From a virus (taxonomy: Duplodnaviria; Heunggongvirae; Uroviricota; Caudoviricetes): a stretch of 64,000 nt of DNA. The notes beneath the pieces were generated by a model that was not told the origin of the DNA, did no database searches, and saw only the letters and a list, made by a program, of their open reading frames with translations. A program made the position numbers and the translations under genes. The stretch is from IMG/VR virus record IMGVR_UViG_3300032050_000069. The stretch is one strand, 5' to 3'. Shown here one piece after another: positions 223-57,239 of the stretch (position 1 is its first letter; each line of letters opens with the position of its first letter).

Positions 223-1032
223 ATGAGTTATTACGGTTACGAAAGGGTTTATATCAATGGTTGTTCTCATTCACAAGGTGGGGGGTTAGAAGGGCCTGAA
301 TTAAGGGATGATTCGGTATTCCCTTTATACAAAGAAAAGTATGGAGTGGAGAAGTGGGATGATAGAACCCGTTTGAATTTTGGACACCACTTATCTGAAT
401 TGATTGGGATTCCACACCTCAATGAAGCGGAGAGTGGTGGTGGAACTGAAAGGGTGGTACGAATGGCGTATAATTGGTTATTAGATAATTGGGAAATTAG
501 GGATAAGGTAATTCTTATATTAGAAAATCCTGATCCATCCCGTTTTGAAGTTTATTATAGACCGGTTGGGGAATACTTTATACTCAATACAAATATAAAT
601 GCGGAGGAGGGTAGTGGCGAATTCGTATCATCTACTCGCAAATACTATGGTAGCGAAACTTCTAATGAGGATAAAATGATAGAACCTATTTTTATGAAGT
701 GGTTTAACAATCATGCAAATATAAGGGAAAATTGGAAAAGAATTGAAAGGGATTTTGTGGGGTTGTATTCGTTTTGTAAGTGGAATGGTATAAAAATTTT
801 TGTAATGACGGGTAATAGTGTTACATTTAAGGAATGTTTTGATAAAGAGGATATAATTAAATTTGGTAATGATGAAAAAAATTACGACATTTGTAGTTGG
901 GCGATTGATAACCGAAAAACTATATCCGATGAATTAGATGGTAAATCCGCAGATAGACATCCAGGTTATTTTGGACACAAAGAATATGCAGAATTATTAA
1001 AAGTGTTTTTAGATAAAAGATTAAATAAATAA
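223..1032 (+). CDS. hypothetical protein; member of a 6-copy paralog family, putative SGNH/GDSL-like hydrolase
   Basis: 269-aa ORF. N-terminal YINGCSHSQGGGL block resembles the GDSFTWGQG / GCSFT blocks of ORFs at 35145, 39725, 41926, 42563, 45964. Hydrolase assignment is motif-level inference only. Confidence 0.35.
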   Translation: MSYYGYERVYINGCSHSQGGGLEGPELRDDSVFPLYKEKYGVEKWDDRTRLNFGHHLSELIGIPHLNEAESGGGTERVVRMAYNWLLDNWEIRDKVILILENPDPSRFEVYYRPVGEYFILNTNINAEEGSGEFVSSTRKYYGSETSNEDKMIEPIFMKWFNNHANIRENWKRIERDFVGLYSFCKWNGIKIFVMTGNSVTFKECFDKEDIIKFGNDEKNYDICSWAIDNRKTISDELDGKSADRHPGYFGHKEYAELLKVFLDKRLNK

Positions 1033-1633: not shown

Positions 1634-1884
1634 TGGAAACTGAAATCAAAGAACAAAAGGAACTAATTCTTAAAAGAGTTCCACCTGGTGATAGATGGGT
1701 ATTCGCTAATGCTAATTCAAATAGTATAGTGTATCCATCTCTTACTGATGGTTTAGAAGCTTGGTTTCAGGCTAATGGTCACACTCAATTCTATATCGAT
1801 GCACGAAAGGGAGCTGTGGAAATTGTTCAACAAAAGGAAGTAGAAAAACCTATTACGAAGTATTCTTTATATGGAGAAGACTAA
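1633..1884 (+). CDS. hypothetical protein
   Basis: 83-aa ORF abutting the previous stop (ATGA-type junction), same strand. Confidence 0.3.
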   Translation: METEIKEQKELILKRVPPGDRWVFANANSNSIVYPSLTDGLEAWFQANGHTQFYIDARKGAVEIVQQKEVEKPITKYSLYGED

Positions 1885-2326
1885 AACATTAGTAATTTGT
1901 AGTGGGTATTTTAATCCGATTCATAAGGGACATATAGAATACTTAAAAAGAAGTAAGGAGTTAGGTGATTTTCTTTATGTAATTGTGAATAACGATTACC
2001 AAAGAGAAATGAAAGGTAGTAGACCTTTTATGGAAGCCGATGAAAGAAAACTAATTGTAGAATCTTTGGGATTTGTTGATAGAGCTATGGTGGCGATTGA
2101 TGAAGAAAAAACCGTCAATCGTAGTATCAAATGGATTATGATGAATATTGGAAAAGAATTTAATCGTTATATATTTGCTAATGGAGGTGATCAAAATCGA
2201 AACACAGTTGGTGAAACCAAATTGTGTGAAGAGTTGGGAATAGAATTGGCAGATGGATTGGGTGATAAAATTCAATCTTCATCAAAACTTATAAAAGATT
2301 CAGATGAGTTTTATAATAGGAAATAA
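1871..2326 (+). CDS. cytidylyltransferase-like nucleotidyltransferase (HxGH class, TagD / RfaE-domain-II-like)
   Basis: N-terminal LVICSGYFNPIHKGHIEYL block is the (T/H)xGH signature of the class-I nucleotidyltransferase fold. Size 151 aa fits a stand-alone cytidylyl/adenylyltransferase. Confidence 0.55.
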   Translation: MEKTKTLVICSGYFNPIHKGHIEYLKRSKELGDFLYVIVNNDYQREMKGSRPFMEADERKLIVESLGFVDRAMVAIDEEKTVNRSIKWIMMNIGKEFNRYIFANGGDQNRNTVGETKLCEELGIELADGLGDKIQSSSKLIKDSDEFYNRK

Positions 2327-2618
2327 ATGTGTAGATTGTTTAGATACCAGTTGTGTAAGCGTTTGCCCGATTGATTGTATTCATGGGCCCATTTATACAG
2401 ACCGAATGGGGTGGGAAGTATCTCAAATGAATGATGAAGATAAGAAGGGAAAACAACTATATATTAATCCTGCGGAGTGTATAAATTGTGGAGCGTGTGT
2501 ACCCGAATGCCCGGTTGATGCGATTTATTCCGATGAAAAGGAGGCGATTTCATTAGGAGACGAGGTATCGGTCCACAAAAACTATGAATTCTTTGGACAG
2601 TTTTATCAAAAAAAATAA
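2304..2618 (+). CDS. 2x[4Fe-4S] ferredoxin
   Basis: Two CxxCxxCxxxCP-type clusters: CVDCLDTSCVSVCP and CINCGACVPECP. Confidence 0.7.
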   Translation: MSFIIGNKCVDCLDTSCVSVCPIDCIHGPIYTDRMGWEVSQMNDEDKKGKQLYINPAECINCGACVPECPVDAIYSDEKEAISLGDEVSVHKNYEFFGQFYQKK

Positions 2619-2656
2619 TATATTTATATTTACAATTATAACTTAAAAACACAATT

Positions 2657-2959
2657 ATGACAACGTTTATTTTAATTTTAGTTTTAGTAACAATCGCAGC
2701 AGGTACTGTAATCTTTCTTCAAAAATCTGGTAAAATTGCAGATAAAGATGGTGATTTAATACCTGATGTAGTAGAAGAGAAAGTTGAAGAGGTAAAGGAA
2801 GTTGTTAAAGAAGTAAAGACTAGAGCAAAAAAAGTAGCAACCGAAGTAGGTGATGTAGCCAAAGCTGTAAAAGAAGTGGCGAAACAATCTAAAGATGTAG
2901 TAAATGCTGCAAAAACTTCAACTGGTGCTCGTAGAGGAAGAAAACCTGCTCAAAAATAA
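2657..2959 (+). CDS. small membrane-anchored K/E/V-rich protein
   Basis: N-terminal hydrophobic helix (FILILVLVTIAAGTVIFL) followed by a charged low-complexity tail. Confidence 0.3.
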   Translation: MTTFILILVLVTIAAGTVIFLQKSGKIADKDGDLIPDVVEEKVEEVKEVVKEVKTRAKKVATEVGDVAKAVKEVAKQSKDVVNAAKTSTGARRGRKPAQK

Positions 2960-2976
2960 TAATTTAAATCTATAAG

Positions 2977-4236
2977 GTGGGGTTAGTAAATGAGGCTTTC
3001 TGCCTTGCTCCGTGGATACATACATATAATGGAACATTAGGAGAAAGGAGAGTATGTTGTATTTCATCATTAGAATTAGGAAAGGGTTCAACTCTTTCCG
3101 ATTCCTTTAATGGGGATGAAATAAGACAGCTGAGAAAGGATATGATTGCGGGAAAACAAATAGAATCCTGTAATCTATGTAATAACCAACCTTATGAAAA
3201 CACTTACAAATTTCATTTTAACGGTAATTACAAATACCTAATAGATGAAGTTATAAATAATACAAAAGAAGATGGGACTTATACAGGTCTTCCCATCACA
3301 TTTGATTACCGAAATGATTTATGCAATTTAAAATGTAGAATATGTGGTAGTTCTGCATCATCATCAATCAGAGCAGAATTCACTAAATTCGGTAATTATC
3401 AAAAGGAATCGGAATTACTTTCCGGCACCGAATCCCGCAATCTTTCGGAACTTCAATTAGAAGAAATGTTATTCCTAATTGAAAATACCGATATAAAAGA
3501 AATCTATTGGGCGGGAGGAGAACCTCTTTTCAATATTAATCACTATAAGGTTTTAAACCGTCTTATTGAATTAGGAAAAACCAATGTATTCTTACGATAC
3601 AATACCAATTTTACTAACATTACATTTAGGGAGTTTAATTTTTTAGATATAATTGCTCACTTTGATAGAGTTCACTTTTATTTTTCGCAAGATGGTATAG
3701 GTGAAACTGCTGAGTATTTGAGATATGGACAGAATTTTTCCAAATGGGATTTTAACATTCAGCAAGTAGTAAAAATAAAAAAACCAAAATGGGAATTTTA
3801 TGTTCATTCTGTAATGACAATTCTCACTCTTTTAGATGTTGAAAAGATCATTGAATATGTTCACGAATATGAAAACATAGGAATTAGTTTTTTCAAATGT
3901 TTTTCTGATGAATATAAAGATATACTTACACCTGATTTTTACCCAAAAGAAATTATTACAAAAATAATTGAGGAGAAAATCCAAATTATAGATAATCAAT
4001 ATAGTGGAAGTAGAAAATTAGTTGCAGTAAACTTTTTGGAAAATATGTTAAAAACATTTAATCAAATAGAAAGGAGTGATATACAAACTAAACTTTCATT
4101 TGGTTATATAGATGATTTGGATAAATTGAGACCATACTCAAGAACATTTTCTGATTTTATAAAAGAAGGTAATAATGAACTTTTCCAATATTTAAGTAAA
4201 AGAAAAGCCGAAATTTCAGATAATGATAATAACTGA
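2977..4236 (+). CDS. radical SAM enzyme with N-terminal Cys-rich extension (paralog of 37335..38573)
   Basis: CNLKCRICG is a CxxxCxxC radical-SAM cluster motif. YWAGGEPLF is the glycine-rich SAM-binding motif. N-terminal CLAPW...RRVCC block is shared with the 37335 ORF (CVMPF...KPCC). Confidence 0.6.
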   Translation: MGLVNEAFCLAPWIHTYNGTLGERRVCCISSLELGKGSTLSDSFNGDEIRQLRKDMIAGKQIESCNLCNNQPYENTYKFHFNGNYKYLIDEVINNTKEDGTYTGLPITFDYRNDLCNLKCRICGSSASSSIRAEFTKFGNYQKESELLSGTESRNLSELQLEEMLFLIENTDIKEIYWAGGEPLFNINHYKVLNRLIELGKTNVFLRYNTNFTNITFREFNFLDIIAHFDRVHFYFSQDGIGETAEYLRYGQNFSKWDFNIQQVVKIKKPKWEFYVHSVMTILTLLDVEKIIEYVHEYENIGISFFKCFSDEYKDILTPDFYPKEIITKIIEEKIQIIDNQYSGSRKLVAVNFLENMLKTFNQIERSDIQTKLSFGYIDDLDKLRPYSRTFSDFIKEGNNELFQYLSKRKAEISDNDNN

Positions 4237-4972
4237 TTTCCTTCATAATAATAAGAATCACAAAGAATTAAATCAACTTTGGAATAATTCCACACCATTT
4301 CCTAATTTAGAATTTAAGAATTTTTTGAGTGATGAAATGGTAGTTTCGATGAAAAACGAAATTACAGATTCTTATAGAAAGCATAACCATTTACTCAAAA
4401 ACTTTACCCGAAATGGTTCTCATATGGTTGAGTTATGTGAAGCGGGTGATGTTTGCCCAATAGCACATCAACTTATTGGGGATTTACATTCAAAGTATTT
4501 TATAGATTGGTTGGAAAGAGTTACGGGAATAGATGGATTGATACCCGATCCGTGGCTTGTAGGAGCATCTTATATGAGATGTTATAGAGGTGATTCATTG
4601 CAAGTCCATTCTGATTTTAATTGGAATGAAAAGCTAAAACTTCATAGAAAATTAACATTAGTAATTTACCTAAATCCTGAATGGGAAGAAAATTGGAATG
4701 GTGATATACAATTGTGGGATAAAGATAGAACACACTGCGTTCAAAAATACTATCCTACTAATGGAAACCTCGTTTTATGGGAGTATTCCAAATACGCTTT
4801 TCATGGACACCCACATCCACTAAATTGCCCAGAACACATAACAAGAGATGGAATTAGATTATTTTATTATATATCTGATGCTGAACACAAATCAGATGAC
4901 CCTCCACACCGTTCACTTTATTGGTTCGATGAAAAAACTAAAGAACCTTTCGATAAAAAGAAATCCTTTTAA
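4223..4972 (+). CDS. possible 2OG-Fe(II) oxygenase-like protein
   Basis: LQVHSDF (HxD) and downstream His residues spaced as in the double-stranded beta-helix facial triad. Weak motif-only call. Confidence 0.3.
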   Translation: MIITDFLHNNKNHKELNQLWNNSTPFPNLEFKNFLSDEMVVSMKNEITDSYRKHNHLLKNFTRNGSHMVELCEAGDVCPIAHQLIGDLHSKYFIDWLERVTGIDGLIPDPWLVGASYMRCYRGDSLQVHSDFNWNEKLKLHRKLTLVIYLNPEWEENWNGDIQLWDKDRTHCVQKYYPTNGNLVLWEYSKYAFHGHPHPLNCPEHITRDGIRLFYYISDAEHKSDDPPHRSLYWFDEKTKEPFDKKKSF

Positions 4973-19963: not shown

Positions 19964-20659
19964 ATGAAAGATTTACTAACTATTGTAATCCCTTGTAAAA
20001 ACGAAAAAGATAACATTTATGAATGTATTTCATTTATTGCAAAGCAAGTTGGAAGTGCAGGACTTAAAGTTATTATTGCAGATACTTCCGATGAGGGAGA
20101 TAGTTTAGATTTTATTGAATATACGAAAAGAGACTACCGATATTCATTAGATATTGAACTAATTGAAGGTGGATTTCCTGCAAAAGCCCGTTTAGAGGCT
20201 AGTAAATTAGTAACCACTCCTTACATACTATTTTTGGATGCTGATATAATGTTAAGAGATAAATCTGTTTTGAAAAAATGTTTAGAGTATAATACGGATT
20301 TAGTTACTGTTCCATTTCAAACTGAAACGGGATTTAATTGGATATTTAGGTTATTCGATATTCAACAAAGATTGAGTAATTGGTTGGGCACTCCATTTGC
20401 AGTTGGTGGATTTCAATTGTGGAAAACCGAAGCATATTGGAAGACCGGTGGATATGATGAAACACATTTATTCGCAGAAGATTATTGGGTTTCACAAAAA
20501 GTAGATGTAATGAAAATACACAAAACAAAAGGTGTATGGACATCTGCAAGAAGATTTAGGAATAAAGGATTTTTTTATATGTTTTGGTTGAGTATTAAAT
20601 GTTACTTTAATAGAAACAATTCTGAATTTTTTAAACAACATCACAATTATTGGAATTAA
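19964..20659 (+). CDS. family-2 (GT-A fold) glycosyltransferase
   Basis: N-terminal LTIVIPCKNEKDNI is a typical GT2 start. DAD-like LFLDADIML (DxD). Confidence 0.5.
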   Translation: MKDLLTIVIPCKNEKDNIYECISFIAKQVGSAGLKVIIADTSDEGDSLDFIEYTKRDYRYSLDIELIEGGFPAKARLEASKLVTTPYILFLDADIMLRDKSVLKKCLEYNTDLVTVPFQTETGFNWIFRLFDIQQRLSNWLGTPFAVGGFQLWKTEAYWKTGGYDETHLFAEDYWVSQKVDVMKIHKTKGVWTSARRFRNKGFFYMFWLSIKCYFNRNNSEFFKQHHNYWN

Positions 20660-28328: not shown

Positions 28329-28359
28329 CAGTTTGAGAGTTAAAAACAAAAATAGAGTT

Positions 28360-35144: not shown

Positions 35145-36164
35145 ATGAGAGAGATAATTTGTGCAGGGTGTTCCTTCACTAATTTTAATACTCTTAATGA
35201 GGATATGGTTTTAAATGGGATGACACCTGATATAGATGGTGTATCTCCATTAGGTTCGTATCCGGAAGCAATTCATCGTAATTATAGAAATAAAGTATAT
35301 AATGCGGGAATGGCTGGTAATAATATATCTACTTCGGTATTATCTATATTATCGATTGCAGATAGATTACTAAAAGAAGGTAAGAAAATTTCTATTATCT
35401 TACAATGCACCGAATTCACAAGAAAATCACATTATTTTCCAACCTCTTTTCAGATTATTAAAAACATTGCAAGTGATAATAGTTCAGTTCGCAATAATAA
35501 TTATTTATTTGATGGAAGTGAAAACGGATTTTTTCAATTCGGAACATTAAGTGACGTATCGCCAAATTTTTCAACAAATAAAAATTTAGTAGAGATAGCG
35601 AAAAGTATCGGAGAAAATTTGTTTAGCATTGAATCAACTTATATAGATTCAATTATACACATATTATTACTACAAAATTATTGTAAGGCTAACAAAATAC
35701 CATATAAAGTATTTTGCAAAACTGAATCATTTAGTTTGCCATTTGCCCCTCTATTCTATATTGATGATACAACAATAGATTCACAATTTAGATCTATTTT
35801 TATTAATAAACAATTTGCCACTAAAAAAAGATTATCGTTTGTAAATTCGGATCCATATATTAAGAATTTATTTGGATTATTGGATTTAGATAATTTTTGG
35901 TTTTTAGATGATGAAAATTGTAAATATGGTGGAATAACGGAATGGGTTTATCTGAAAAACATTTATAGAAATGGTGATAGTGAATATACACCATTAGTGG
36001 TTGAGGATATAGATGGAACTCCTACCCAAATAAAACCTATGTATCCAATAGAAAGAGTATTTGAGAAATTAGAAAACAATACATTCAATCCAAATGGCCA
36101 TCCCTCTTATTTTTATTGGGATTATTTTGTAAAATCTGAAATCGTAAAATGGGAAATATTATAA
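35145..36164 (+). CDS. SGNH/GDSL-like hydrolase family paralog
   Basis: MREIICAGCSFTNF N-terminal block of the paralog family. Confidence 0.35.
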   Translation: MREIICAGCSFTNFNTLNEDMVLNGMTPDIDGVSPLGSYPEAIHRNYRNKVYNAGMAGNNISTSVLSILSIADRLLKEGKKISIILQCTEFTRKSHYFPTSFQIIKNIASDNSSVRNNNYLFDGSENGFFQFGTLSDVSPNFSTNKNLVEIAKSIGENLFSIESTYIDSIIHILLLQNYCKANKIPYKVFCKTESFSLPFAPLFYIDDTTIDSQFRSIFINKQFATKKRLSFVNSDPYIKNLFGLLDLDNFWFLDDENCKYGGITEWVYLKNIYRNGDSEYTPLVVEDIDGTPTQIKPMYPIERVFEKLENNTFNPNGHPSYFYWDYFVKSEIVKWEIL

Positions 36165-37342
36165 ACATATATCCAATAGATTTTGATGAAAATGCAAATG
36201 GTAAATTTGTAAAGACAACCGATTTTAAAGATAAAGATTGGGTGTTAGGCAACATTTATTGGTATCCATTTTTAGAAAAGATATACAACTTTACATTTAA
36301 TTATTCCGAAGATAATACCATATTGTTTCTTACATATAATGGTATGGCCGAATCATTAATTTCTGAAAGGCAATGGTTTTTAGATGTTAAGAGGCAATTA
36401 GATAGTGGTAATTATAAAAAGGTTGTAGTTTATCAAAATGAAGTAAATTGGGATACTTTTCATAAAATACTGGAAATAGAAGATTTTTTTTACGAAATTT
36501 TTGGAGATGATGAAAGATTTGTATTTGTTAGAAACATTTTCAAATCTAGATTTAACTTCACTAAAATAAATGCTACATATACATTTGGATGTTTTCCATT
36601 TCAATTATTCCATAACTATTCGGAAACTTTAGATTTTAATTATGAGATAGAAAAGCAGTTTCATTTATTTTCAGCAAATTGTAATGTAAAAGAAGAAAGA
36701 CTCCATTTTTATCAATTTTTACAAAAGGGGAATTATTGGGATAAAGTAAATACATCGTTTTTTCTTCCATTATATAATAGGAATAAAAAAAGGTTTGAAA
36801 TTTCAGATTTTGTAAATGAAAAATTTTTACATGCAAATACCGGAAATACGAACTCTTTTGTTTCTCATTTGGGAGAATTGGATTTAAGTATTGGGTATCA
36901 TCCCAAAAAATTAAAATATGATGATTTCAATCAAGTAAAAAACTTAGCATTAAATGATAGTGTTGAATCTTTATTTCAAGTAATTTTTGAAACCCGTTAT
37001 CATTCTCCTTGTGGCATTGTATTAAGTGAAAAGATTTTTAAGGGTTTTTGTTACAAGTCTCCATTTATAGTTTTTGCTCAATATGGTGTAATTAAATTAC
37101 TCAAAGAATTTGGGTTTAAAACATTTGATTGGTTGGTAGATGAGAGTTATGATAATGAATTGGATGATAAGAAAAGATTTGAAATGGTTTTAGCGGAAAC
37201 TAAAAAATTATTAGATACACCATTCGATGAACTTAAATCTAAAATAGAAAAAAATTATGATGTATTAGAGCATAATCATAAAATGGTAAATGAATTTGCC
37301 TTATCAGAAATAGATAAAATATATAAATTATTCGATGTATAA
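36149..37342 (+). CDS. putative glycosyltransferase, GT10 fucosyltransferase-like (paralog of 40707..41933)
   Basis: FQVIFETRYHSPCGIVLSEKIFKG resembles the GT10 FxxxFEN(S/T)...(T/S)EK motif. C-terminal ~120 aa alignable with the 40707 ORF. Confidence 0.35.
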   Translation: MGNIINIYPIDFDENANGKFVKTTDFKDKDWVLGNIYWYPFLEKIYNFTFNYSEDNTILFLTYNGMAESLISERQWFLDVKRQLDSGNYKKVVVYQNEVNWDTFHKILEIEDFFYEIFGDDERFVFVRNIFKSRFNFTKINATYTFGCFPFQLFHNYSETLDFNYEIEKQFHLFSANCNVKEERLHFYQFLQKGNYWDKVNTSFFLPLYNRNKKRFEISDFVNEKFLHANTGNTNSFVSHLGELDLSIGYHPKKLKYDDFNQVKNLALNDSVESLFQVIFETRYHSPCGIVLSEKIFKGFCYKSPFIVFAQYGVIKLLKEFGFKTFDWLVDESYDNELDDKKRFEMVLAETKKLLDTPFDELKSKIEKNYDVLEHNHKMVNEFALSEIDKIYKLFDV

Positions 37343-38573
37343 TAAAGAAACATTTTGTGTGATGCCGTTTATGCACTTTTCCGTTTTTCAGGATGGAAAG
37401 GTAAAGCCGTGTTGTATGGCAAGTGATTTCTTTGAAGAGAACTTTAATGATTATGTTGATTTTGAACAATTTTATAAAAACGAATCTTATGAAAAATTAA
37501 GAGAGGATTTAAAAAGTGGAATAAAGAATAAGATATGTGATGCCTGTTGGAAAACCGAAGAAAGAGGTGGGAGAAGTTTTAGGCAAGAAAAGAATACACA
37601 TTTTCAAAAACAATATGATAAACTTATAAAAGGTGAATCTGATAAAAACGAATTGGTATTTTTAGATGTAAGATTTTCTAATCAATGTAATTTTAAATGC
37701 CGAATGTGTGGAGAGAGGGATTCTACAAGTTGGTATGATGAAAGAGCTGAGTATTGGGAAAAGGAAGTTGTAGATCCTGTGAGAGAAAAACTTAAACAAT
37801 GGAAATTAGACCACAGAGTATATGAACACATTGCTCCATTTAATAAAAAGAAACTTCACATTCTTAAAAATGATTTTAATAAAGAAGAATTAGAGCATTT
37901 GGAATATGTTTATTTAGCAGGAGGAGAACCATTGTACACAAGAAAAGTATGGGATTTCATAGAAATTATACCACATCCTAAAAATGTGACACTACAATTT
38001 CAAACAAACTTTTCTATATTAGAATACAAAGATACTTCTATTTTTGAATTCACAAAAGGATTTAAAAATGTAGTTTATTCTATATCATTAGATGGATTGT
38101 TTGAGACGGGGGAATTTCAAAGAACTAATTTTAAAACACAAAACTTCTTATCTAATCTAAAAAAATTAAACGAAGAGGTAAAGAATAATCCTAACATTAG
38201 CTATGATTTTACCTTTACCGCAACTTTATTAAATGTATTTCAATTTTTTGAAACCTATGATTACCTAATTGATAATGGGTATATAGCAGATTATTCTAAC
38301 ATTAGATTACAAATAGTAAGTTGGCCGAAACATTTAGATGCTAAAAACTTTGGATTAGAAGCTGAAATAGAAGAGTATTTTAGTAGAACTGAAATAAAAG
38401 GAGTTGAAAAGAATCCTTATTTATTGGGAGATATAAAAAATTACTTATTACATATTAAACAAGGGATAGAGGGTGATAAAGAAGAACACTTAACAAATCT
38501 AAAAAATTACTTAAATTGGTCTTCACTTTACAATAACCTACCGATACCAAAACATTTACATAAATTTTTATAA
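37335..38573 (+). CDS. radical SAM enzyme, paralog of 2977..4236
   Basis: CNFKCRMCG (CxxxCxxC), YLAGGEPLY, N-terminal CVMPFMHF...KPCC. Confidence 0.6.
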   Translation: MYNKETFCVMPFMHFSVFQDGKVKPCCMASDFFEENFNDYVDFEQFYKNESYEKLREDLKSGIKNKICDACWKTEERGGRSFRQEKNTHFQKQYDKLIKGESDKNELVFLDVRFSNQCNFKCRMCGERDSTSWYDERAEYWEKEVVDPVREKLKQWKLDHRVYEHIAPFNKKKLHILKNDFNKEELEHLEYVYLAGGEPLYTRKVWDFIEIIPHPKNVTLQFQTNFSILEYKDTSIFEFTKGFKNVVYSISLDGLFETGEFQRTNFKTQNFLSNLKKLNEEVKNNPNISYDFTFTATLLNVFQFFETYDYLIDNGYIADYSNIRLQIVSWPKHLDAKNFGLEAEIEEYFSRTEIKGVEKNPYLLGDIKNYLLHIKQGIEGDKEEHLTNLKNYLNWSSLYNNLPIPKHLHKFL

Positions 38574-38575
38574 CT

Positions 38576-38980
38576 ATGGAACAAAGAAAGTATTTACCAA
38601 CATTGGCTGAACTAATTGATAGATTGAGTATAATTCAGTTAAAGGAAGTTTTCATTACCGAACATAAGGAAGAATATGCAAAAGAAATTGCAGACATTGT
38701 GCATGATATAAACCTATGTTTGAAAGAAAGTAAAGAGGAATTGACGGGGGAAACGATAAGAGCAATAGTTGTTTTATCACAAATGAATCTACACATATGG
38801 ACAAACGAAACTAATGTGAGAAATGGTTCGGAAGGGCCAAATAAGTTAGCTCTAACGCATGGCTTAAATGGTATTCGAAACACCGCTAAGAATCGGATAC
38901 AAGAAGTAGTAGGTGGTAGAAAGGATTATAAGATTGATTGTTTAGCATCAGAATTTAAAGACTGGGAAATCAGTTGGTAA
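38576..38980 (+). CDS. hypothetical protein
   Basis: 134-aa ORF inside the modification cluster. Confidence 0.3.
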   Translation: MEQRKYLPTLAELIDRLSIIQLKEVFITEHKEEYAKEIADIVHDINLCLKESKEELTGETIRAIVVLSQMNLHIWTNETNVRNGSEGPNKLALTHGLNGIRNTAKNRIQEVVGGRKDYKIDCLASEFKDWEISW

Positions 38981-38993
38981 AATATATATCATT

Positions 38994-39728
38994 ATGAGAA
39001 TTTTAGTTATAGGAGATAGTTGCACCGATATATTCATTTATGGAAACGCAACTCGTTTATGTCCAGAAGCACCTGCACCAGTATTTGAGCCATCAAGAAC
39101 GGTAACAAACGATGGTATGGCCGGAAACGTTAGGGCAAATTTAGAATCATTAGGAGCAAAGGTTGAGTTAATTACCAACAAAGAGCAAATCACTAAAACT
39201 AGGTATGTAGATGTTAAATCAAACCAAATGTTTATTAGAGTGGATACATTGGATAAGGTGAAATCTGCATTTGACATTAATAGAGTAAATTGGGATGTTG
39301 ATGCTGTGGTGGTATCAGATTACGATAAAGGATTCTTAACCGAAAGTGATATACACTCAATAAGTGGAAGGCATCCTCTTACATTTATTGATACAAAAAA
39401 GCCGATAAACCTACAAACCTTTTCAGATTACACTTATATAAAAATGAATGAATTTGAATGGGAGTTGTGTGAAAAGAAAGGAGCTAAGTATGTTGATTGG
39501 GCAGATAAACTTATTATAACAATGAGTGAGAGAGGTTGCCTTTATCAAAATGAAGTGTTTCCGGTAAATAGAGATATAGAGGTAAGAGATTTAAGTGGTG
39601 CGGGTGATACATTTATGGCATCATTAGTATTCAAATATGTGGAAACAAAGGATTTAAAGGAATCAATTAAATTCGCTAATGAGTGTGCAACGAAAGTTGT
39701 TCAAAAAAGAGGTGTCACCACAATATGA
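38994..39728 (+). CDS. PfkB-family carbohydrate kinase (ribokinase / RfaE-domain-I-like)
   Basis: N-terminal MRILVIGDSCTDIF. C-terminal DLSGAGDTF (the PfkB GAGD anion-hole motif). Confidence 0.55.
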   Translation: MRILVIGDSCTDIFIYGNATRLCPEAPAPVFEPSRTVTNDGMAGNVRANLESLGAKVELITNKEQITKTRYVDVKSNQMFIRVDTLDKVKSAFDINRVNWDVDAVVVSDYDKGFLTESDIHSISGRHPLTFIDTKKPINLQTFSDYTYIKMNEFEWELCEKKGAKYVDWADKLIITMSERGCLYQNEVFPVNRDIEVRDLSGAGDTFMASLVFKYVETKDLKESIKFANECATKVVQKRGVTTI

Positions 39729-40705
39729 AACAAATAGATTTTTTTGGTTGTAGTTTCACCGAAGCACCAATGTGGGAAATGAATCCCAAATTAGGTGAGT
39801 TGGATATACTACTATATTCAATGCATACTCAATCTACAAAGCCGGTAAGTAATTTTTTAGAATTTGATTTGGCTTATAATAATCAAAGTGGATACAAAGT
39901 AAATAATTTTGGGGGAGGTAGTTTTGGAAATCATGTTATAAAAGAGATTCTTAAAAATAGAATTAAAAACTCCAATACAAAGGAAGGGGTAGCTATTGTT
40001 CAATTAAGTGCTTTATTAAGAAATACACAAAGTTATGAAAATATATTTACCTCACCATACTCCTCTTTGACCAAATCCCAAAAGTATGGCATTACTGAAT
40101 TTAATATAATAGGAGGAAATGTCCGAAATGATTATTTTGTTGAAACTGATAATTTAGAAGATTACTATAATTTACATATAAAAAATATAGAAGAAATTGT
40201 AGATTTATTAAAAACAAATTATTCAAATTATTTTATACATTTTGGTTGGGATGTTTCAACAAAAGAATTTGAAAGGTTATGGGGAAAATCTGATATAAAA
40301 AATTATGTTCAAACTTATGAATATGAATACCCTATTAATCATCTAGCATATTTTGAAAATCAATCAAAATACAGCATAGTTACGAAAAAATGTAAAGGTA
40401 ATATGGGGGGGATGTTAGATTATTCCGCAAACCATTTGGAAGAATCTTTAAGATATGTCCATCTGACATTAGACCATCATCCATCATACTTTTCTAATAA
40501 AATCTTTTATAAAGGTGTTATAAAACCATTTTTATCAAAACTAATAAATTTAGAAAAGGATTATTTTGAAGAAGATAATTTATTAAAATTTGAAGAATTC
40601 TTAAAAGTTTTATTGCCTACAAAAGAAAGCACCGATGGTAAGATTTATGGAGAGATGCAGGTAAAAATAGTAAATTACATTAAAAATTCTATCACAAATA
40701 AGTAA
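39725..40705 (+). CDS. SGNH/GDSL-like hydrolase family paralog
   Basis: ATG at 39725 overlaps the kinase stop (ATGA). MKQIDFFGCSFTEAPMW. Confidence 0.35.
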   Translation: MKQIDFFGCSFTEAPMWEMNPKLGELDILLYSMHTQSTKPVSNFLEFDLAYNNQSGYKVNNFGGGSFGNHVIKEILKNRIKNSNTKEGVAIVQLSALLRNTQSYENIFTSPYSSLTKSQKYGITEFNIIGGNVRNDYFVETDNLEDYYNLHIKNIEEIVDLLKTNYSNYFIHFGWDVSTKEFERLWGKSDIKNYVQTYEYEYPINHLAYFENQSKYSIVTKKCKGNMGGMLDYSANHLEESLRYVHLTLDHHPSYFSNKIFYKGVIKPFLSKLINLEKDYFEEDNLLKFEEFLKVLLPTKESTDGKIYGEMQVKIVNYIKNSITNK

Positions 40706-40706
40706 T

Positions 40707-41933
40707 ATGAAAAATTTGGTATTTTACAAATATGCACCTAATCATAATGAAAATTTAGAATTTGATGATTTTCATTTAGATTCCATCCATCAACCAGAGA
40801 GAGAATTTTTTAAAGCAAGAAAAGATTATTTTTATTCTTTTTTATCTGATTACAATATTATAGAAAATGAAAAAGAAATAAATGGGTTAGATAAATTCTA
40901 TTTAATTATAGGCTTTGATGATTCATTTAGGCAATTATTTTCATTACCAAATAGAAAAGATTTTACTGATTTAGTTTCAAATAATATAACCAAAATAAAA
41001 AAGGTAATATTTTGGGAAATGGATACTGATTGGACAAATTATACTTTAATGGAGTATAAAGAAAATTTTGTTAAATTTAATAGTTATTTTTCAGAATTAA
41101 AATTACCATATAAATTATTTTCAACTGTTTTTAAATTTAAATATGATAGTGATGTGGGTTATTTTGCAGCTCAGAATGCTATGACAATTGAAAAATTAGA
41201 TAATGAGTTATTGAAAAATGATTACTTTGATGCTAACTATAATAAAGAAAAAACAAAGTATTTCTATTCTGCGGCTAATAGTATAAACACCGATAGAATG
41301 CATTACTATAAATTTGTAGATGATAATAATCTATGGGATAAAAATAATTTGGCATTCTTTTCAACTTATAGAAATAATGAATTAGGGCAAGGATTTAACT
41401 ACTCACAAATTGTATATGATTACAATAGAGGTAAGGGTGGATTGGTGGAAATCGATGATTCATATATCTTTAAGCCAAAACCATTTGATGATGAAGAGTT
41501 TAAAACGATGGAGTATTCGTTATTAACCAATCTAAATAGATATAGTGATTCTCTTTTTGAAATGGTTTTTGAAACTATGTATGAATCATGTGAAGGGCAA
41601 ATTATACAAACATCGGAAAAAACTTTAAAACCATTTATTCAAAAAAAACCATTTCTTACATTCTCATATACTAATATGTTAAGTGAATTAAAAAAGTTAG
41701 GTTTTAAAACTTTTGATTTTATTTTTGATGAGAGCTATGATGAATTGGCAGACCATACAAATCGTCTTTATTACATATTAGACGAATATAAAACTATTTG
41801 TGATAGAGATATAAAAGAATTACATAATATAGTGAAGGAGAACTATGATGTTTTAGACCATAATTATAATAATATGATTACGATTTTAAATAAATTCAAA
41901 TCAGATTTCATAAACGAAATAGAAAATGGGTAA
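40707..41933 (+). CDS. putative glycosyltransferase, GT10-like paralog
   Basis: FEMVFETMYESCEGQIIQTSEKTLK motif. C-terminal homology with the 36149 ORF. Confidence 0.35.
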   Translation: MKNLVFYKYAPNHNENLEFDDFHLDSIHQPEREFFKARKDYFYSFLSDYNIIENEKEINGLDKFYLIIGFDDSFRQLFSLPNRKDFTDLVSNNITKIKKVIFWEMDTDWTNYTLMEYKENFVKFNSYFSELKLPYKLFSTVFKFKYDSDVGYFAAQNAMTIEKLDNELLKNDYFDANYNKEKTKYFYSAANSINTDRMHYYKFVDDNNLWDKNNLAFFSTYRNNELGQGFNYSQIVYDYNRGKGGLVEIDDSYIFKPKPFDDEEFKTMEYSLLTNLNRYSDSLFEMVFETMYESCEGQIIQTSEKTLKPFIQKKPFLTFSYTNMLSELKKLGFKTFDFIFDESYDELADHTNRLYYILDEYKTICDRDIKELHNIVKENYDVLDHNYNNMITILNKFKSDFINEIENG

Positions 41934-42609
41934 AATACTTTTTTTAGGTGATAGTTTTACTTGGGGACAGGGTTTGTATTTTTACAAATGGAAAGAGGAG
42001 GGTAGAGAACTACCAACTAATATAGGAGGTATGTATCCTAGTCATTCCGATTTAATTAGAGAGCAGGATTTAGTATATAAAGATAAATTATCCTTTACAG
42101 GTTTAGTATCCGATTACTATAATTTAGAACCAATAAAAAGAAATAAAAATGGCGGTAGTAATACCGATATATTATTAGATACTATCCCTTTAATAGATAC
42201 TTATAATAATTCTATACAAAAATTAGTATTTCAATTTACAACTATAAGTAGATACCAATTTAGAGATTTAAACATCGTTGATGATGATTCAATAAACCCA
42301 TCGTTTAATGATATGTTTGAGCAAAGGGCATTTAACTTTTATAAATTTATCGATGGGATACTAAAATACTATTCAGAGCTATATAAATTTCAATACTGTT
42401 TTATGGATTGGTTGGGTGATTTTTACAAATTCCAACCACATAAATTTGTTAAGTATTTATATAATGAAAAAAATCATTATTGTTTCAATCCATTATTAAA
42501 TGAGTATAAAATAGATATCGATATTAATAATCATAAAATTATTGATTTACATTTAAATAAAGATGCACAACATATATTATCAACTTCAATTATCAAACAC
42601 TTCGGATAA
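41926..42609 (+). CDS. SGNH/GDSL-like hydrolase paralog
   Basis: MGKILFLGDSFTWGQGLYF. Confidence 0.4.
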   Translation: MGKILFLGDSFTWGQGLYFYKWKEEGRELPTNIGGMYPSHSDLIREQDLVYKDKLSFTGLVSDYYNLEPIKRNKNGGSNTDILLDTIPLIDTYNNSIQKLVFQFTTISRYQFRDLNIVDDDSINPSFNDMFEQRAFNFYKFIDGILKYYSELYKFQYCFMDWLGDFYKFQPHKFVKYLYNEKNHYCFNPLLNEYKIDIDINNHKIIDLHLNKDAQHILSTSIIKHFG

Positions 42610-43348
42610 CTCAAAAGAAATAGTCTTTATAGGAGATAGTTTCACTTGGGGACAGGGCCTATATTTAGACTATTGGAAAGAAAATAGACCAGAACTATTT
42701 GAAAAGTTTTATGCTAATACAATAGAAAATGAAACACACTTACAGTGGATTGATCAGCAAGAATTTATTGGAAAAGAAGAAATGATTATTAAAGATAATT
42801 TATCATTTACCAATAAAGTAGGTGAATCGTTGGGTAGAAAAGTATATAAGAAAAAATATAATGGTGGGAGTATAACATCGAATAGACAGCTTTTAGAAAA
42901 CTTTTATAAATTAGAATCTGAAAAAAGAGATGTTATTTTAATTTTCCAATTTACATCTTTGGGGAGAGAGGATTTTGGTATAATTACTGATGAAGAATTC
43001 AGTAGGTATAATTTACTAATACATCGGCCTGATTCTGTTGTAAGAGAAATATTAAAAGATAGAATATACTCAATTTATAAATCCATAGATTCAATTATTG
43101 ATAATTTAGAAACTGAATTGGGTTGGAGATGCTACTATTTGGATTGGTTAGGAGATTTCTCTGAATTTGATGAAAAAAATAGATTTATTAAAATAAATGA
43201 TAATACATCCTTTTTTAATTTGGTTTTAAACAATCCAATAAAAATTGAATACAAAGATAAAATTTTCTATGATTATCATTTAAATAGAAAAGGAAATATA
43301 ATACTCGCGGAATCTATCTTAAAAAAAATAAATTTGGAAAATTCATAA
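42563..43348 (+). CDS. SGNH/GDSL-like hydrolase paralog (tandem duplicate, overlaps previous gene by 47 nt in another frame)
   Basis: KEIVFIGDSFTWGQGLYL. Own start codon upstream of the GDS block. Confidence 0.4.
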   Translation: MHNIYYQLQLSNTSDNSKEIVFIGDSFTWGQGLYLDYWKENRPELFEKFYANTIENETHLQWIDQQEFIGKEEMIIKDNLSFTNKVGESLGRKVYKKKYNGGSITSNRQLLENFYKLESEKRDVILIFQFTSLGREDFGIITDEEFSRYNLLIHRPDSVVREILKDRIYSIYKSIDSIIDNLETELGWRCYYLDWLGDFSEFDEKNRFIKINDNTSFFNLVLNNPIKIEYKDKIFYDYHLNRKGNIILAESILKKINLENS

Positions 43349-44640: not shown

Positions 44641-45243
44641 ATGAAACATTTGCTATTAATTTCGTTATTATCCTTCTTTACAACTGTTGGTTATTCACAA
44701 GATGTAAGGATTAAAAATAATGTGTTTGAAACACTTTATTCTCAATCATTAGAACAACCATTATGGATTAGGTATCGTTCTATAAATCGACCTACAAATG
44801 TGAATAGGGGAACTATGGATTTCTATAAAGAACCTAATGTTAAAACATCGGATGCGGAAGATTATGTGAAGAACATTTATGATAAGGGACATGGAGCACC
44901 AGCCGCATCGTTCTCCGATAATATGGAGAACTTAAAGCAAACATTCTCTTATTTGAATTGTATATTACAGGATCAATATCTTAATAGAGGAGAGTGGAGA
45001 TTGTTAGAGGAGCAAGAAAGAAAGTGGGATGATGTTGAAAATCTGACGGTGTTAATAACATTACACTTTGATAATCCTGTTAGAAGAATCGCAACAAACG
45101 CTGCAATTCCAGCTTATTTAGAAAAACACATATATTTTGAAAAATCAGGTAAATGGAGATGTTTTGTGTTTTTGAATGAAAGGCCTAAATATAAGTGGGA
45201 ACAATTGGAAAAACTTTGCGAAACAAAAGAACATAATAAATAA
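44641..45243 (+). CDS. secreted DNA/RNA non-specific endonuclease (beta-beta-alpha-Me, DRGH-type)
   Basis: Signal peptide MKHLLLISLLSFFTTVGYSQ. DKGHGAPAASFSDN matches the DRGH active-site block. Downstream N (LNCILQDQYLNRGEW). Confidence 0.55.
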   Translation: MKHLLLISLLSFFTTVGYSQDVRIKNNVFETLYSQSLEQPLWIRYRSINRPTNVNRGTMDFYKEPNVKTSDAEDYVKNIYDKGHGAPAASFSDNMENLKQTFSYLNCILQDQYLNRGEWRLLEEQERKWDDVENLTVLITLHFDNPVRRIATNAAIPAYLEKHIYFEKSGKWRCFVFLNERPKYKWEQLEKLCETKEHNK

Positions 45244-45641
45244 TGGCGTATAGTCAAAAAGTGCTTGGGCACTATGAAAACCCAAAGAATGTAGGAACGT
45301 TAGATAAGAGTAAATCAAATGTTGGAACGGGATTGGTTGGAGCACCGGAATGTGGTGATGTAATGAGATTGCAGATTGAAGTAAATGATGGTGTAATAAC
45401 TGATGCTAAGTTTAAAACTTTTGGATGTGGTTCGGCGATTGCAGCTTCATCATTAGCCACCGAATGGTTAAAAGGTAAATCAATTGATGAGGCACTTACA
45501 ATTGATAATATGGATTTAGTTGAAGAATTGGCCTTACCACCTGTAAAAATCCATTGCAGTGTTTTGGCGGAGGATGCAATTAAATCTGCGATAAATGATT
45601 ATAGAGTTAAACAAGGATTAGAACAATTAAATTTTGAATAA
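45243..45641 (+). CDS. iscU: Fe-S cluster assembly scaffold IscU/NifU-like
   Basis: YSQKVLGHYENPKNVG, GAPECGDVMRLQ, TFGCGSAIAASS, HCSVLAEDAIKSAI contain the three conserved Cys and the LPPVK-HC motif. Confidence 0.8.
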   Translation: MAYSQKVLGHYENPKNVGTLDKSKSNVGTGLVGAPECGDVMRLQIEVNDGVITDAKFKTFGCGSAIAASSLATEWLKGKSIDEALTIDNMDLVEELALPPVKIHCSVLAEDAIKSAINDYRVKQGLEQLNFE

Positions 45642-45964
45642 TGATTACGGTTACAGAAAACGCTTCTAAAAAAGTTAAATCACTTATTGAAGAAAGTGGT
45701 AATACGACACCTTATTTAAGAGTTGCTGTAAAAGGTGGTGGATGTAGTGGATTATCATATGACCTTTCGTTTGATGATGATGTTAAACCATCGGATATGC
45801 AGTTTGAGGATAAAGATGTAAAAATTTTAGTAGATGGTAAATCGTTTATGTATTTGTTTGGAACTGAATTAGATTTTTCTGATGGATTAAATGGAAAAGG
45901 ATTTGAATTTAAGAATCCAAATGCAAGTAGAACCTGTGGATGTGGTGAATCATTCTCTTTGTAA
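45641..45964 (+). CDS. iscA: A-type Fe-S carrier IscA/HesB-like
   Basis: KGGGCSGLSYDL ... CGCGESF C-terminal CxC motif of the HesB/IscA family. Confidence 0.75.
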   Translation: MITVTENASKKVKSLIEESGNTTPYLRVAVKGGGCSGLSYDLSFDDDVKPSDMQFEDKDVKILVDGKSFMYLFGTELDFSDGLNGKGFEFKNPNASRTCGCGESFSL

Positions 45965-46945: not shown

Positions 46946-46975
46946 AACCCCTTAATTATATAGGGGTTTTTTATT
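46946..46975 (+). terminator. rho-independent terminator
   Basis: aacccct-taattatat-aggggtt hairpin plus T-run. Confidence 0.55.
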
Positions 46976-55075: not shown

Positions 55076-55245
55076 AAATAAGTTCTTTAAAATAGCAGGC
55101 GGGAGGTGAGGTATCTCGTTGGTCTCATAAGCCAAATTAACTAGGTTCGATTCCTAGGCGTTGCAACAAATCTACACTACTAGATTTTTGTGAGAGTAGT
55201 ATTCAGACGGTATCCTTAACAGGGCTTGGATGAGGTTCACAAAAA
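55076..55245 (+). ncRNA. small RNA 1 with isolated tRNA-like T-arm
   Basis: CTAGG-TTCGATT-CCTAG T-arm-like hairpin, but no foldable acceptor/anticodon arms. Downstream ACTACT...AGTAGT hairpin. Lies between promoter cassettes 1 and 2. Confidence 0.3.
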
Positions 55246-57126: not shown

Positions 57127-57157
57127 CAAGAAAGGTTCTTTGACATTGTGGGAAAAT

Positions 57158-57231: not shown

Positions 57232-57239
57232 CAATTTAT

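Follow-up and report, generated by a model that had tools for sequence, protein, structure and literature searches.

The founding twitch-domain radical-SAM (rSAM) enzyme is BtrN, a 2-deoxy-scyllo-inosamine dehydrogenase that acts on a sugar-like aminocyclitol and whose auxiliary cluster serves in electron transfer. Also among the closest known systems to the genes described herein are BlsE, DesII and AprD4 (rSAM enzymes whose substrates are sugars linked to a nucleoside or an NDP), together with the SPASM/twitch peptide maturases anSME, SkfB, CteB and SuiB. For sugar activation, the reference is HldE/RfaE, a bifunctional heptose-7-P kinase and heptose-1-P adenylyltransferase, and among phages the “LPS” heptose cluster of P-SSM2 and S-SM2 (PSSM2_308-314). 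For Fe-S supply, marine T4-like viral genomes have been described that carry IscU/A-type carrier genes with up to 12 rSAM genes, and a viral scaffold serving viral Fe-S enzymes was already proposed for them (Nishimura et al. 2017, PMC5332604).

Herein we analysed a window (the whole stretch of DNA, 64 kb) that is phage-like in its single-strand coding, its 22 tRNAs and its relatives, which are metagenomic viral contigs. Every gene named in the first-pass annotation was found intact on the plus strand where it had been placed, and the set is dispersed over 1.9-46.8 kb of the window and does not form a single operon. The features are as follows, where hhalign values are probabilities against the SGNH family of the viral rSAM cassette.

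223..1032, +, SGNH-family protein, paralog of 45964 (BLAST 1.4e-19 to 45964; hhalign 97%)
1871..2326, +, small cytidylyltransferase-fold nucleotidyltransferase (HxGH, read as HKGH), RfaE/HldE domain II-like (CTP_transf_like 50 bits)
2304..2618, +, dicluster FdxA-like ferredoxin (Fer4_10, Fer4, Fer4_7)
2657..2959, +, 100-aa membrane-anchored K/E-rich protein (invariant C-terminal RGRKPAQK)
2977..4236, +, rSAM-1, radical-SAM enzyme with N-terminal twitch domain, NF033640 (GTG start, 419 aa)
4223..4972, +, 2OG-Fe(II) oxygenase, prolyl-hydroxylase-like superfamily (2OG-FeII_Oxy_3)
19964..20659, +, GT2 (GT-A fold) glycosyltransferase (Glycos_transf_2 6.4e-13)
35145..36164, +, SGNH-family protein (hhalign 97.6%)
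36149..37342, +, GT-B-fold glycosyltransferase of a Pfam-less family, directly upstream of rSAM-2
37335..38573, +, rSAM-2, distant paralog of rSAM-1, NF033640 (412 aa)
38576..38980, +, 134-aa protein between rSAM-2 and kinase (only a sub-threshold DUF4254 match, E 0.02)
38994..39728, +, short PfkB-family sugar kinase, RfaE/HldE domain I-like (PfkB 70.6 bits)
39725..40705, +, possible SGNH-family protein, weak (G-C-S-F-T and D-H-H-P motifs; hhalign only 62%)
40707..41933, +, GT-B-fold glycosyltransferase of the Pfam-less family (35% identity to 36149..37342)
41926..42609, +, SGNH-family protein, paralog of 42563 (GDSFTWGQG motif; hhalign 97.3%)
42563..43348, +, SGNH-family protein (hhalign 92%; sub-threshold Lipase_GDSL, E 0.05)
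45243..45641, +, IscU Fe-S scaffold (NifU_N 167 bits)
45641..45964, +, IscA / A-type Fe-S carrier (Fe-S_biosyn 75.6 bits; start abuts IscU stop)
45964..46836, +, SGNH-family protein (hhalign 94.7%; start abuts IscA stop)

The two radical-SAM proteins

Both rSAM proteins match, at full length, the NCBIfam family NF033640 (“twitch domain-containing radical SAM protein”, N_Twi_rSAM), with 260.9 bits for rSAM-1 (E 2e-77, residues 6-396) and 264.6 bits for rSAM-2 (E 1.5e-78, residues 5-394) against a curated cutoff of 170 bits. They share 23% identity (E 2e-17), in agreement with the earlier proposal that they are paralogs of one unusual subfamily. The CxxxCxxC, GGEPL and N-terminal C-x2-P-(W/F)...CC motifs claimed for the pair can be read in both, as C116-x3-C120-x2-C123 (CNLKCRICG), AGGEPL at 179-184 and C9-x2-P12-W13...C27-C28 in rSAM-1, and as CNFKCRMCG, AGGEPL and FCVMPF...CC in rSAM-2. 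Across an alignment of 33 NF033640 sequences, no variation is seen at C27, C28, C65, C68, C116, C120, C123 or G180-G181-E182, and almost none at C9.

The cysteine-rich extension that the first-pass annotation had noticed is, as judged from sequence, a predicted Fe-S twitch auxiliary-cluster domain that has been relocated so that it precedes the SAM-cleaving core at the N-terminal end. Over the first 90 residues, the alignment to the BtrN twitch has an E of about 1e-7 and preserves its C-x17-C...C-x2-C spacing, and a Pfam SPASM match lies at residues 8-72 of rSAM-2. In BtrN, however, the twitch comes after the core, the cores are barely alignable, and the predicted structure has an extra C-terminal region, helical and roughly 100 residues long. 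This high-confidence model adopts a SPASM/twitch-class fold whose nearest solved relatives are BlsE (a sugar-nucleoside rSAM), SkfB, anSME and MoaA, with as many peptide-modifying as sugar-modifying enzymes among the neighbours, at equal Z. Relative to anSME, SkfB, CteB and SuiB, the domain order in the window proteins is permuted, the C-terminal SPASM is missing, and neither an evident precursor nor a sulfatase gene adjoins. A RiPP-type SPASM/twitch maturase is an unlikely identity, as the auxiliary domain is N-terminal and the adjoining genes encode the membrane protein, the 2OG oxygenase, a GT-B protein and the 134-aa protein. The housekeeping identities raised beforehand, QueE or an NrdG activase, were likewise discarded: matches to QueE and NrdG2 reached an E of only 6e-5 to 2e-4 over ~45 residues, far under cutoffs, and a PHROG QueE-like match only 1.3e-4. 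Our literature search on NF033640 returned no paper and no member with a reported substrate.

Genomic neighbourhoods of the family

At least 583 viral relatives were found, usually as 5-6 tandem paralogs per locus, and we counted neighbours at 80 IMG/VR loci, which hold 378 NF033640 genes. rSAM-1 and rSAM-2 match different array members at 56 of these 80 loci. Interleaved with the arrays are the Pfam-less GT-B family (53/80) and the SGNH family (34/80), and the recurrent partners include a carbamoyltransferase (40/80), a sugar epimerase/dehydratase (23/80), and a DegT aminotransferase (19/80). Also present are UDP-Glc/GDP-Man dehydrogenase, GT7, GT2 and a protein resembling APS kinase. A matching glycan-type neighbourhood surrounds NF033640 genes in three TARA contigs (L010-L012), and another contig (L179) carries two GT-B genes, a UDPG dehydrogenase and an rSAM together. 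Bacterial NF033640 contigs encode GDSL proteins, PhyH dioxygenase, carbamoyltransferase, B12-rSAM and ABC ATPase. By genomic neighbourhood, NF033640 is strongly associated with glycan-type genes, and this family context is a stronger signal than the gene block around rSAM-1. The nucleotide-sugar or glycan reading offered by the first-pass annotation fits the neighbourhoods in bacteria, and those in viruses much more strongly. The conserved cassette families U1, U4, U5, U7 and U9 are without annotation, and no homolog of them was found in the window.

The window itself holds two GT-B genes and five or six SGNH genes. Homologs of the 36149..37342 GT-B protein adjoin rSAM arrays in three contigs (L016, L010, L004); the family has no Pfam assignment among 33 homologs and no PDB sequence match, and the window GT-B proteins show two Rossmann-like domains with predicted transferase activity. 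The GT2 protein is the sole window ORF with IVIPCKNE...DAD motifs, and its PDB matches are the TagF N-terminal and TarS GT domains. The putative SGNH assignment is built on profile matches under Pfam thresholds: in the viral family the G and S are invariant and the H nearly invariant (block I G-D/C-S and block V (D)xxH motifs), and its profile (A7) has 4lhs as best PDB match at 5e-6, followed by numerous GDSL/CE2 esterases between 1e-3 and 0.3. With moderate confidence, we read these genes as a toolkit, loosely linked around the N-twitch rSAMs, for tailoring a glycan or a nucleotide-sugar.

Sugar activation, Fe-S supply and gene order

The two RfaE domains are the best NCBIfam models for the window kinase and nucleotidyltransferase, but the genes are split, the proteins short and the scores far under the equivalog cutoffs (122.2 bits against 345 for rfaE_dom_I and 65.5 against 181.5 for rfaE_dom_II, respectively). 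Typical PfkB proteins are about 60 aa longer than the kinase, whose best PDB match is HldA; the nucleotidyltransferase matches ECT, 3glv and TagD. Full-length homology was seen to PHROG 8133 (kinase, 3e-81) and PHROG 7878 (nucleotidyltransferase, 1.5e-18), and the split pair has tblastn matches in 34 phage records. The kinase is 40-48% identical to the “carbohydrate kinase” of T4-like cyanophages; the nucleotidyltransferase is 35-40% identical to those of P-SSM2 and S-SM2, and 34-38% identical to CTP_transf + MannoseP_isomer proteins of two contigs (L010, L093) over their N-terminal part. In support of the first-pass grouping, the two make up a true functional pair in other phages, lying side by side in the P-SSM2 and S-SM2 heptose clusters. 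These clusters also contain carbamoyltransferase, epimerase and 2OG oxygenase genes, and in P-SSM2 the pair adjoins these three and a phosphoheptose isomerase. In the window, by contrast, 37 kb separate the two genes and the scan gave no phosphoheptose isomerase, and the cyanophage clusters examined are without an N-twitch rSAM.

The window IscU is 70% identical to the NifU-like gene of Phage C48C1, and IscU, IscA and the SGNH gene at 45964 form a unit with abutting start and stop codons, closed by a terminator-like hairpin at 46949-46966. Like the genomes of Nishimura et al. (PMC5332604), the window combines IscU and A-type carrier genes of its own with phage rSAM genes; unlike the present analysis, that study gave no rSAM subfamily, arrays or glycan-type partners. 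The suggestion that IscU/IscA supply the phage rSAMs is plausible, although it repeats what was proposed in PMC5332604 and is not new. Of the ISC system the scaffold and the A-type carrier are present and the complete set was not found, with no domain of the cysteine desulfurase IscS or of the chaperones HscA/B among the ORFs scanned in the 64-kb window. The same scan yielded no SIS-type heptose isomerase (GmhA) domain and no dedicated GmhB-type phosphatase, and the P-SSM2 and S-SM2 isomerases had no match anywhere in the 64 kb. The idea of a self-sufficient pathway fails because GmhA, a GmhB-type phosphatase and cysteine desulfurase were not found in the scanned ORFs; both sugar enzymes also fall under their equivalog cutoffs.

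In the block at 1871-4972, the ferredoxin gene overlaps the nucleotidyltransferase gene by 23 nt and the oxygenase start overlaps the rSAM-1 end by 14 nt. FdxA models match the ferredoxin under cutoff, and it could be the reductant for the rSAM clusters. The 100-aa protein, whose membership of the pathway is doubtful, is conserved in two related contigs (L006, L008) and had no family match in Pfam, NCBIfam and PHROG profile scans. The oxygenase scores 55.7 bits against a gathering score of 27, its H-x-D...H triad is legible (VHSD...FHGH), and its PDB matches are 9blq (“putative hydroxylase”, 5e-8) and a P4H at 4e-3. The first-pass annotation had treated this block as a unit, but synteny of the five genes is confined to the window's own phage lineage (rSAM identity at least 59%), and the block is broken in a relative with a 50%-identical rSAM. 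In L009, a contig of a related phage, the neighbours of the rSAM-1 ortholog are instead a phosphoribosyltransferase, an RmlC-like gene and two SGNH genes, and a homolog of the SGNH gene at 35145..36164 lies two genes upstream of that ortholog.

This rearrangement, together with the scatter of the genes across 1.9-46.8 kb, speaks for there being no single pathway, such that IscU/IscA would boost the general Fe-S supply of the host, the kinase and nucleotidyltransferase would change host LPS in the manner of cyanophages, the ferredoxin would meet other redox needs, and the rSAMs would have an unrelated role. The same view draws on the absence of viral IscU/A-type carrier genes from close relatives of the genomes that carry them (PMC5332604), and on the absence of ferredoxin, nucleotidyltransferase and kinase homologs beside NF033640 genes at the 80 viral loci, where a 2OG oxygenase occurs once. 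However, the rSAM, GT-B and SGNH families are found together far too frequently for an unrelated set; in addition, rSAM-2 overlaps its GT-B gene, IscA abuts an SGNH gene, and stop and start codons overlap within the block between nucleotidyltransferase and ferredoxin and between rSAM-1 and oxygenase. We consider separate auxiliary modules possible but unlikely.

Possible chemistry and targets of the proposed tailoring toolkit

In the glycan-tailoring reading, each rSAM would reductively cleave SAM, and the 5'-deoxyadenosyl radical would abstract a hydrogen at a carbon of the sugar, either in a nucleotide-sugar or in a glycan under assembly. By analogy with BtrN or anSME, the Cys-ligated auxiliary cluster may act as an electron relay, with an outcome of the oxidation, epimerisation or dehydration type. 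The split HldE-like kinase and nucleotidyltransferase would activate a sugar phosphate, and two novel GT-B and one GT2 transferase would assemble and decorate the glycan. The five or six SGNH proteins may be O-acyl esterases or transferases, the 2OG oxygenase would belong to the same toolkit, the ferredoxin could reduce the rSAM clusters and IscU/IscA could help to load them. Host functions, among them a sulfur donor, the sugar precursor and a ferredoxin reductase, would still be required, and the target may be a host envelope polysaccharide or a virion protein.

An unlikely alternative, somewhat less probable than separate modules, is that the rSAMs modify a peptide or protein, either a structural protein (a fibre, for example) or a small product of RiPP type, with the 2OG oxygenase as a protein hydroxylase and the transferases then glycosylating the modified protein. 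The prolyl-hydroxylase-like character of the window oxygenase would fit, as would the position of the viral arrays behind a conserved stretch of genes without annotation, some of them small ORFs of 105-115 aa, and giant proteins adjoin two arrays. The first protein of that stretch has a C-terminus faintly like tailspike auto-chaperone domains, but this fibre-like match is not significant (E 0.2-0.3). Neither window rSAM is adjoined by a precursor-like peptide with a conserved core, the 100-aa neighbour being a membrane-anchored K/E-rich protein, and the recurrent partners of the family are nucleotide-sugar enzymes, not proteases, exporters or RiPP recognition elements.

Hypermodification of phage DNA or nucleotides, which had also been suggested and in which the GT-B enzymes would attach sugar to a modified base and the rSAMs would tailor either that base or its sugar, is very improbable and gained no support: a GT-B homolog (P0226) is fused to a dCMP-deaminase domain and a dCMP deaminase gene lies near the arrays in L004 and at 4 of the 80 viral loci, but at such distance GT-B enzymes score alike, with dozens of envelope-glycan transferases equal or better, the scan of the remaining window ORFs gave only the dUTPase and dCTP-deaminase-like domains of ordinary phage nucleotide genes and no base hydroxymethylase or other DNA-base-modification domain, and the carbamoyltransferase, DegT, epimerase and UDPG dehydrogenase partners are typical polysaccharide-pathway genes.

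The glycan-tailoring reading places two unusual rSAM enzymes of a large uncultured phage amid sugar-activating, sugar-transferring and Fe-S-cluster genes. They belong to a huge family, NF033640, which many phages keep as tandem arrays within apparent glycan-building clusters.

Family membership, cluster motifs and fold of the two radical-SAM proteins

All the genes listed in the first-pass annotation were found in the window, together with every motif quoted there. The genes considered here are as follows:

1871-2326, + strand, nucleotidyltransferase of the cytidylyltransferase fold (HKGH)
2304-2618, + strand, dicluster ferredoxin
2977-4236, + strand, rSAM-1, radical-SAM protein
4223-4972, + strand, 2OG-Fe(II) oxygenase
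19964, + strand, GT2 gene
37335-38573, + strand, rSAM-2, second radical-SAM protein
38994-39728, + strand, PfkB kinase
45243-45641, + strand, IscU
45641-45964, + strand, IscA

Both radical-SAM (rSAM) proteins clear the curated 170-bit threshold of NF033640, the NCBIfam model for "twitch domain-containing radical SAM protein": rSAM-1 scores 260.9 bits and rSAM-2 264.6 bits, and they are 23% identical to each other. They are not QueE or NrdG, the housekeeping identities that the first-pass annotation had named as fatal to its reading; the QueE, NrdG and MoaA models gave marginal partial matches, and these three as well as AslB were ruled out by score. An alignment of 33 sequences spanning 20–86% identity shows four invariant cysteines towards the N-terminus (C27, C28, C65 and C68), with the C116/C120/C123 triad and the GGE motif equally invariant and C9 nearly so. 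Residues 10–98 of the family profile match the twitch domain of BtrN (E ~1e-7), which is C-terminal in that enzyme, whereas the matching part is N-terminal in NF033640 proteins; the C-x2-P-(W/F)...CC extension is thus, on profile alignment, a predicted twitch auxiliary-cluster domain permuted to the N-terminus. With 7,383 representatives at an E of 1e-30 or better in a 50%-identity library, the family is very large; some of these representatives are fused double enzymes of ~800 aa. Many members (P0241–P0255 and others) reach ~800–1100 aa and carry two or three complete N-twitch rSAM modules per chain.

Genomic context of the family in bacteria and viruses

Bacterial relatives were surveyed with one genome per species, and the best 80 of at least 280 belong mostly to Bacteroidota, Bdellovibrionota and Elusimicrobiota. 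Tandem copies (2–5) occur at 20 of these 80 loci, and the recurrent neighbours (a GDSL-like protein, PhyH-type 2OG dioxygenases, a carbamoyltransferase, a B12-rSAM and an ABC ATPase) are each present at no more than 10% of them. In the chromosome of Cytophagales bacterium Alg240-R148 (LS999827.1), a lone family member has a LitR-like regulator of the MerR/B12-binding type as a neighbour, along with genes for carotenoid and photolyase functions, a context unlike the glycan-type contexts of the family elsewhere.

IMG/VR holds at least 583 viral relatives, and their context is much sharper than in bacteria. The best 80 of these loci contain 378 family genes, usually five or six per locus, in a conserved layout where an unannotated run precedes the four to seven rSAM genes, members of two further families are interspersed among these, and an unannotated gene and a carbamoyltransferase follow. 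The interspersed families are a predicted glycosyltransferase family lacking Pfam domains (GT-B, 53/80 loci) and a putative esterase/acyltransferase family (SGNH, 34/80). Further partners include the carbamoyltransferase (40/80), an NAD-dependent sugar epimerase/dehydratase (23/80) and a DegT aminotransferase (19/80), and a UDP-Glc/GDP-Man dehydrogenase, an APS-kinase-like protein, GT7 and GT2 also lie near the arrays. The unannotated protein families flanking these arrays (L098–L177, e.g., L098, L112, L136 and L144) run U12-U9-U7-U5-U5-U14-U1 before the array and U4 after it; they have neither a Pfam domain nor a homolog in the window, and the U12 C-terminus bears a faint likeness to tailspike auto-chaperone domains (E 0.2–0.3).

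Metagenome contigs retrieved by protein search give the same picture, with three paralogs inside a sugar-nucleotide cluster on TARA contigs, five on a 351-kb contig and four on a 72-kb contig. By tblastn, rSAM-1 matched only the cultured Vibrio phages K566 and K567, which carry four family members, and proteins of KVP40 and phi-pp2 are structural matches.

Gene organization of the window

Coding in the window is nearly all on the + strand, with a G+C of ~32%. Megablast of 25 kb returned no close GenBank phage match, the nearest relatives being metagenomic contigs (one a 126-kb JGI contig), and PHROGs was near-empty for ten large ORFs. A full-length GOLLD RNA (56030-56440, +; Rfam RF02032, 303 bits against a gathering threshold of 150) lies directly upstream of a tRNA island (57055-61482, +), whose 22 tRNA genes cover most amino acids and are separated by small ORFs (among them an RNaseH-like one at 58807). 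An extra weak tRNA-like match was seen at 55095-55165 (31 bits), and an 81-aa ORF (56010-56255) that starts 20 nt upstream of the GOLLD RNA and lies almost wholly inside it is probably not a gene. An AAA ATPase (CobS-like PHROG 249) and an SPFH/Band-7 protein are encoded by auxiliary genes at 28333-29574 and 31544-32464, and a cREC_REC (cyclic-phosphate processing receiver) domain protein at 43829 (+). A pooled ORF scan added dUTPase/dCTP-deaminase-like, HAD_SAK_2 and two Metallophos domains, of which only the Metallophos at 63029 was placed, via a homolog on the related contig L009.

The five-gene block at 1871-4972 has overlaps of 23 nt (nucleotidyltransferase/ferredoxin) and 14 nt (rSAM-1/2OG oxygenase). 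Relatives with an rSAM identity as low as 59%, all of the same phage lineage as the window, preserve a gene order that runs from DUF4494 and a small ORF through nucleotidyltransferase, ferredoxin and the 100-aa membrane protein to rSAM and the 2OG oxygenase. On L009, whose proteins match other parts of the window at 63–79% identity, the rSAM-1 ortholog (50% identity) has two SGNH genes, together with a phosphoribosyltransferase and an RmlC-like gene, to one side of it and an RNaseH-like gene to the opposite side; neither ferredoxin nor nucleotidyltransferase was found on that contig, and its sole 2OG oxygenase is ~6 kb off. Within 10 kb of the family genes at the best 80 of at least 583 viral loci, homologs of the window's ferredoxin, nucleotidyltransferase and kinase were found at none and of the 2OG oxygenase at one. 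The block is a lineage-specific arrangement and not a conserved operon. Its 100-aa protein (2657-2959, +), kept in relatives, combines an N-terminal membrane helix with a K/E-rich one, carries an invariant, AT-hook-like RGRKPAQK at the C-terminus, and was ruled out as a precursor peptide on account of the membrane anchor and K/E-rich helix. Just downstream of the block, in synteny kept in relatives, two genes (5743-7428 and 7430-9727, +) encode large proteins whose signal peptides (…LFAQ, …GFGQ) are of the Bacteroidota style and whose C-terminal halves are related (24% identity, E 1e-11); the second also has a C-type lectin domain. The products may be secreted or surface proteins, and they could point to a Bacteroidota host.

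The kinase belongs over its full length to PHROG 8133 (3e-81), and its identity to the "carbohydrate kinase" that T4-like cyanophages encode is 40–48%. In P-SSM2 that gene has a small nucleotidyltransferase on one side and a phosphoheptose isomerase on the other, with a carbamoyltransferase, an epimerase and also a 2OG oxygenase next to them, and S-SM2 is similar. The window's nucleotidyltransferase matches those of both phages, and since the two genes are adjacent there, their pairing in the first-pass annotation is reasonable, although they are 37 kb apart in the window. Both miss the HldE equivalog cutoffs.

The start and stop codons of IscU, IscA and an SGNH gene (45964) abut, and a terminator-like hairpin follows 46836; promoter and terminator scans were otherwise uninformative, with fewer promoter-like sites than in shuffles. 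Immediately upstream, the stop codon of a DNA/RNA non-specific endonuclease with a signal peptide (44641, +) abuts the IscU start. IscU is rare in GenBank phages (17 records), among them the T4-like Phage C48C1. Among marine T4-like viruses, genomes that encode IscU, A-type carriers or both along with 2–12 rSAM genes have been described, and viral scaffolds were proposed to serve viral Fe-S proteins (Nishimura et al. 2017, PMC5332604). The self-sufficient pathway of the first-pass annotation did not hold up: the genes are real, yet they form a loosely linked toolkit, and neither a GmhA isomerase in searches of the window nor a desulfurase domain in Pfam scans of its ORFs was found.

Two paralogs, at 36149 and 40707, share 35% identity and belong to the GT-B family of the viral arrays. 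None of their homologs has a Pfam domain, Pfam and NCBIfam returned nothing for the window's GT-B and SGNH proteins, and tblastn of the GT-B protein gave no match. The motifs G-(D/C/S)-S and (D)xxH are present in six window proteins (223, 35145, 39725, 41926, 42563 and 45964), and five of them match the viral SGNH family at 92–98% hhalign probability (39725, 62%). PDB profile searches with the small GT-B and six-protein SGNH alignments gave spurious matches only, and hhalign against a bacterial GDSL cluster reached 79% probability over just 20 residues; the relationship was resolved only with the larger viral alignment, the joint profile of which matches solved SGNH/GDSL/CE2 esterases at best at 5e-6. 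As the Pfam thresholds are not reached, we regard the SGNH assignment as likely rather than proven. The order at 35145-43348 (SGNH, GT-B, rSAM-2, unknown, kinase, possible SGNH, GT-B, SGNH, SGNH) resembles the viral rSAM cassette in reduced form. A link between dCMP deaminase and the arrays was examined and set aside: the gene is near arrays at 4/80 viral loci (L110, L111, L120 and L156) and beside a GT-B gene on contig L004 (17894-19373), and one 638-aa GT-B homolog (P0226) is fused to an N-terminal dCMP-deaminase domain.

Possible substrates of the radical-SAM proteins

The most economical reading is that the rSAM proteins tailor a carbohydrate (nucleotide-sugar or glycan) within a phage-encoded glycan toolkit, which we find about as easy to believe as to doubt. 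Of this, the analysis shows the family membership, the cluster motifs, the fold and the genomic association. An rSAM protein would abstract a hydrogen from the sugar while the twitch cluster would relay an electron; IscU and IscA would load the Fe-S clusters, and the ferredoxin, judging from adjacency alone, may be the reductant. The alternative that the genes are unrelated modules sharing no pathway we regard as rather doubtful. A protein or peptide target, favoured by the history of the enzyme class and by the prolyl-hydroxylase-like oxygenase, seems unlikely. DNA or nucleotide modification, for which a generic likeness of GT-B to T4 glucosyltransferases and the thin dCMP-deaminase link are the sole arguments, is very improbable.

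Extending the carbohydrate reading, arrays of N-terminal-twitch rSAM genes with their private GT-B and SGNH partners could, tentatively, represent a widespread virus-encoded "radical glycan" pathway, in which each paralog would perform its own, distinct radical step (epimerisation, oxidation, dehydration or C-C bond formation) on a glycan of virion fibres or the infected-cell surface, the window phage having a reduced, scattered version with its own ferredoxin and IscU/IscA. To our knowledge, such chemistry has no characterised counterpart. The literature yielded nothing specific on the function of NF033640, on N-terminal twitch domains, on phage combinations of rSAM and carbamoyltransferase or on PDB 9BLQ; a single cyanophage paper labels an rSAM gene as an "antibiotic synthesis gene" but gives no evidence for it. 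As the family name is curated and the co-occurrence of IscU with rSAM genes is published, the finding as written is not categorically new; we found no reports of the permuted-twitch family's massive tandem expansion in viruses, or of its close linkage to an SGNH family and an unannotated GT-B family.

Occurring at a minimum of 583 viral loci, with arrays of 5–7 genes accompanied by GT-B in sugar-nucleotide clusters, NF033640 offers a concrete lead to phage radical chemistry on carbohydrates, and since four members occur in cultured Vibrio phages of the KVP40 group, the question can be addressed by experiment. If confirmed, this would be a new branch of rSAM enzymology and would help explain the many rSAM and Fe-S assembly genes of large marine and freshwater phages.
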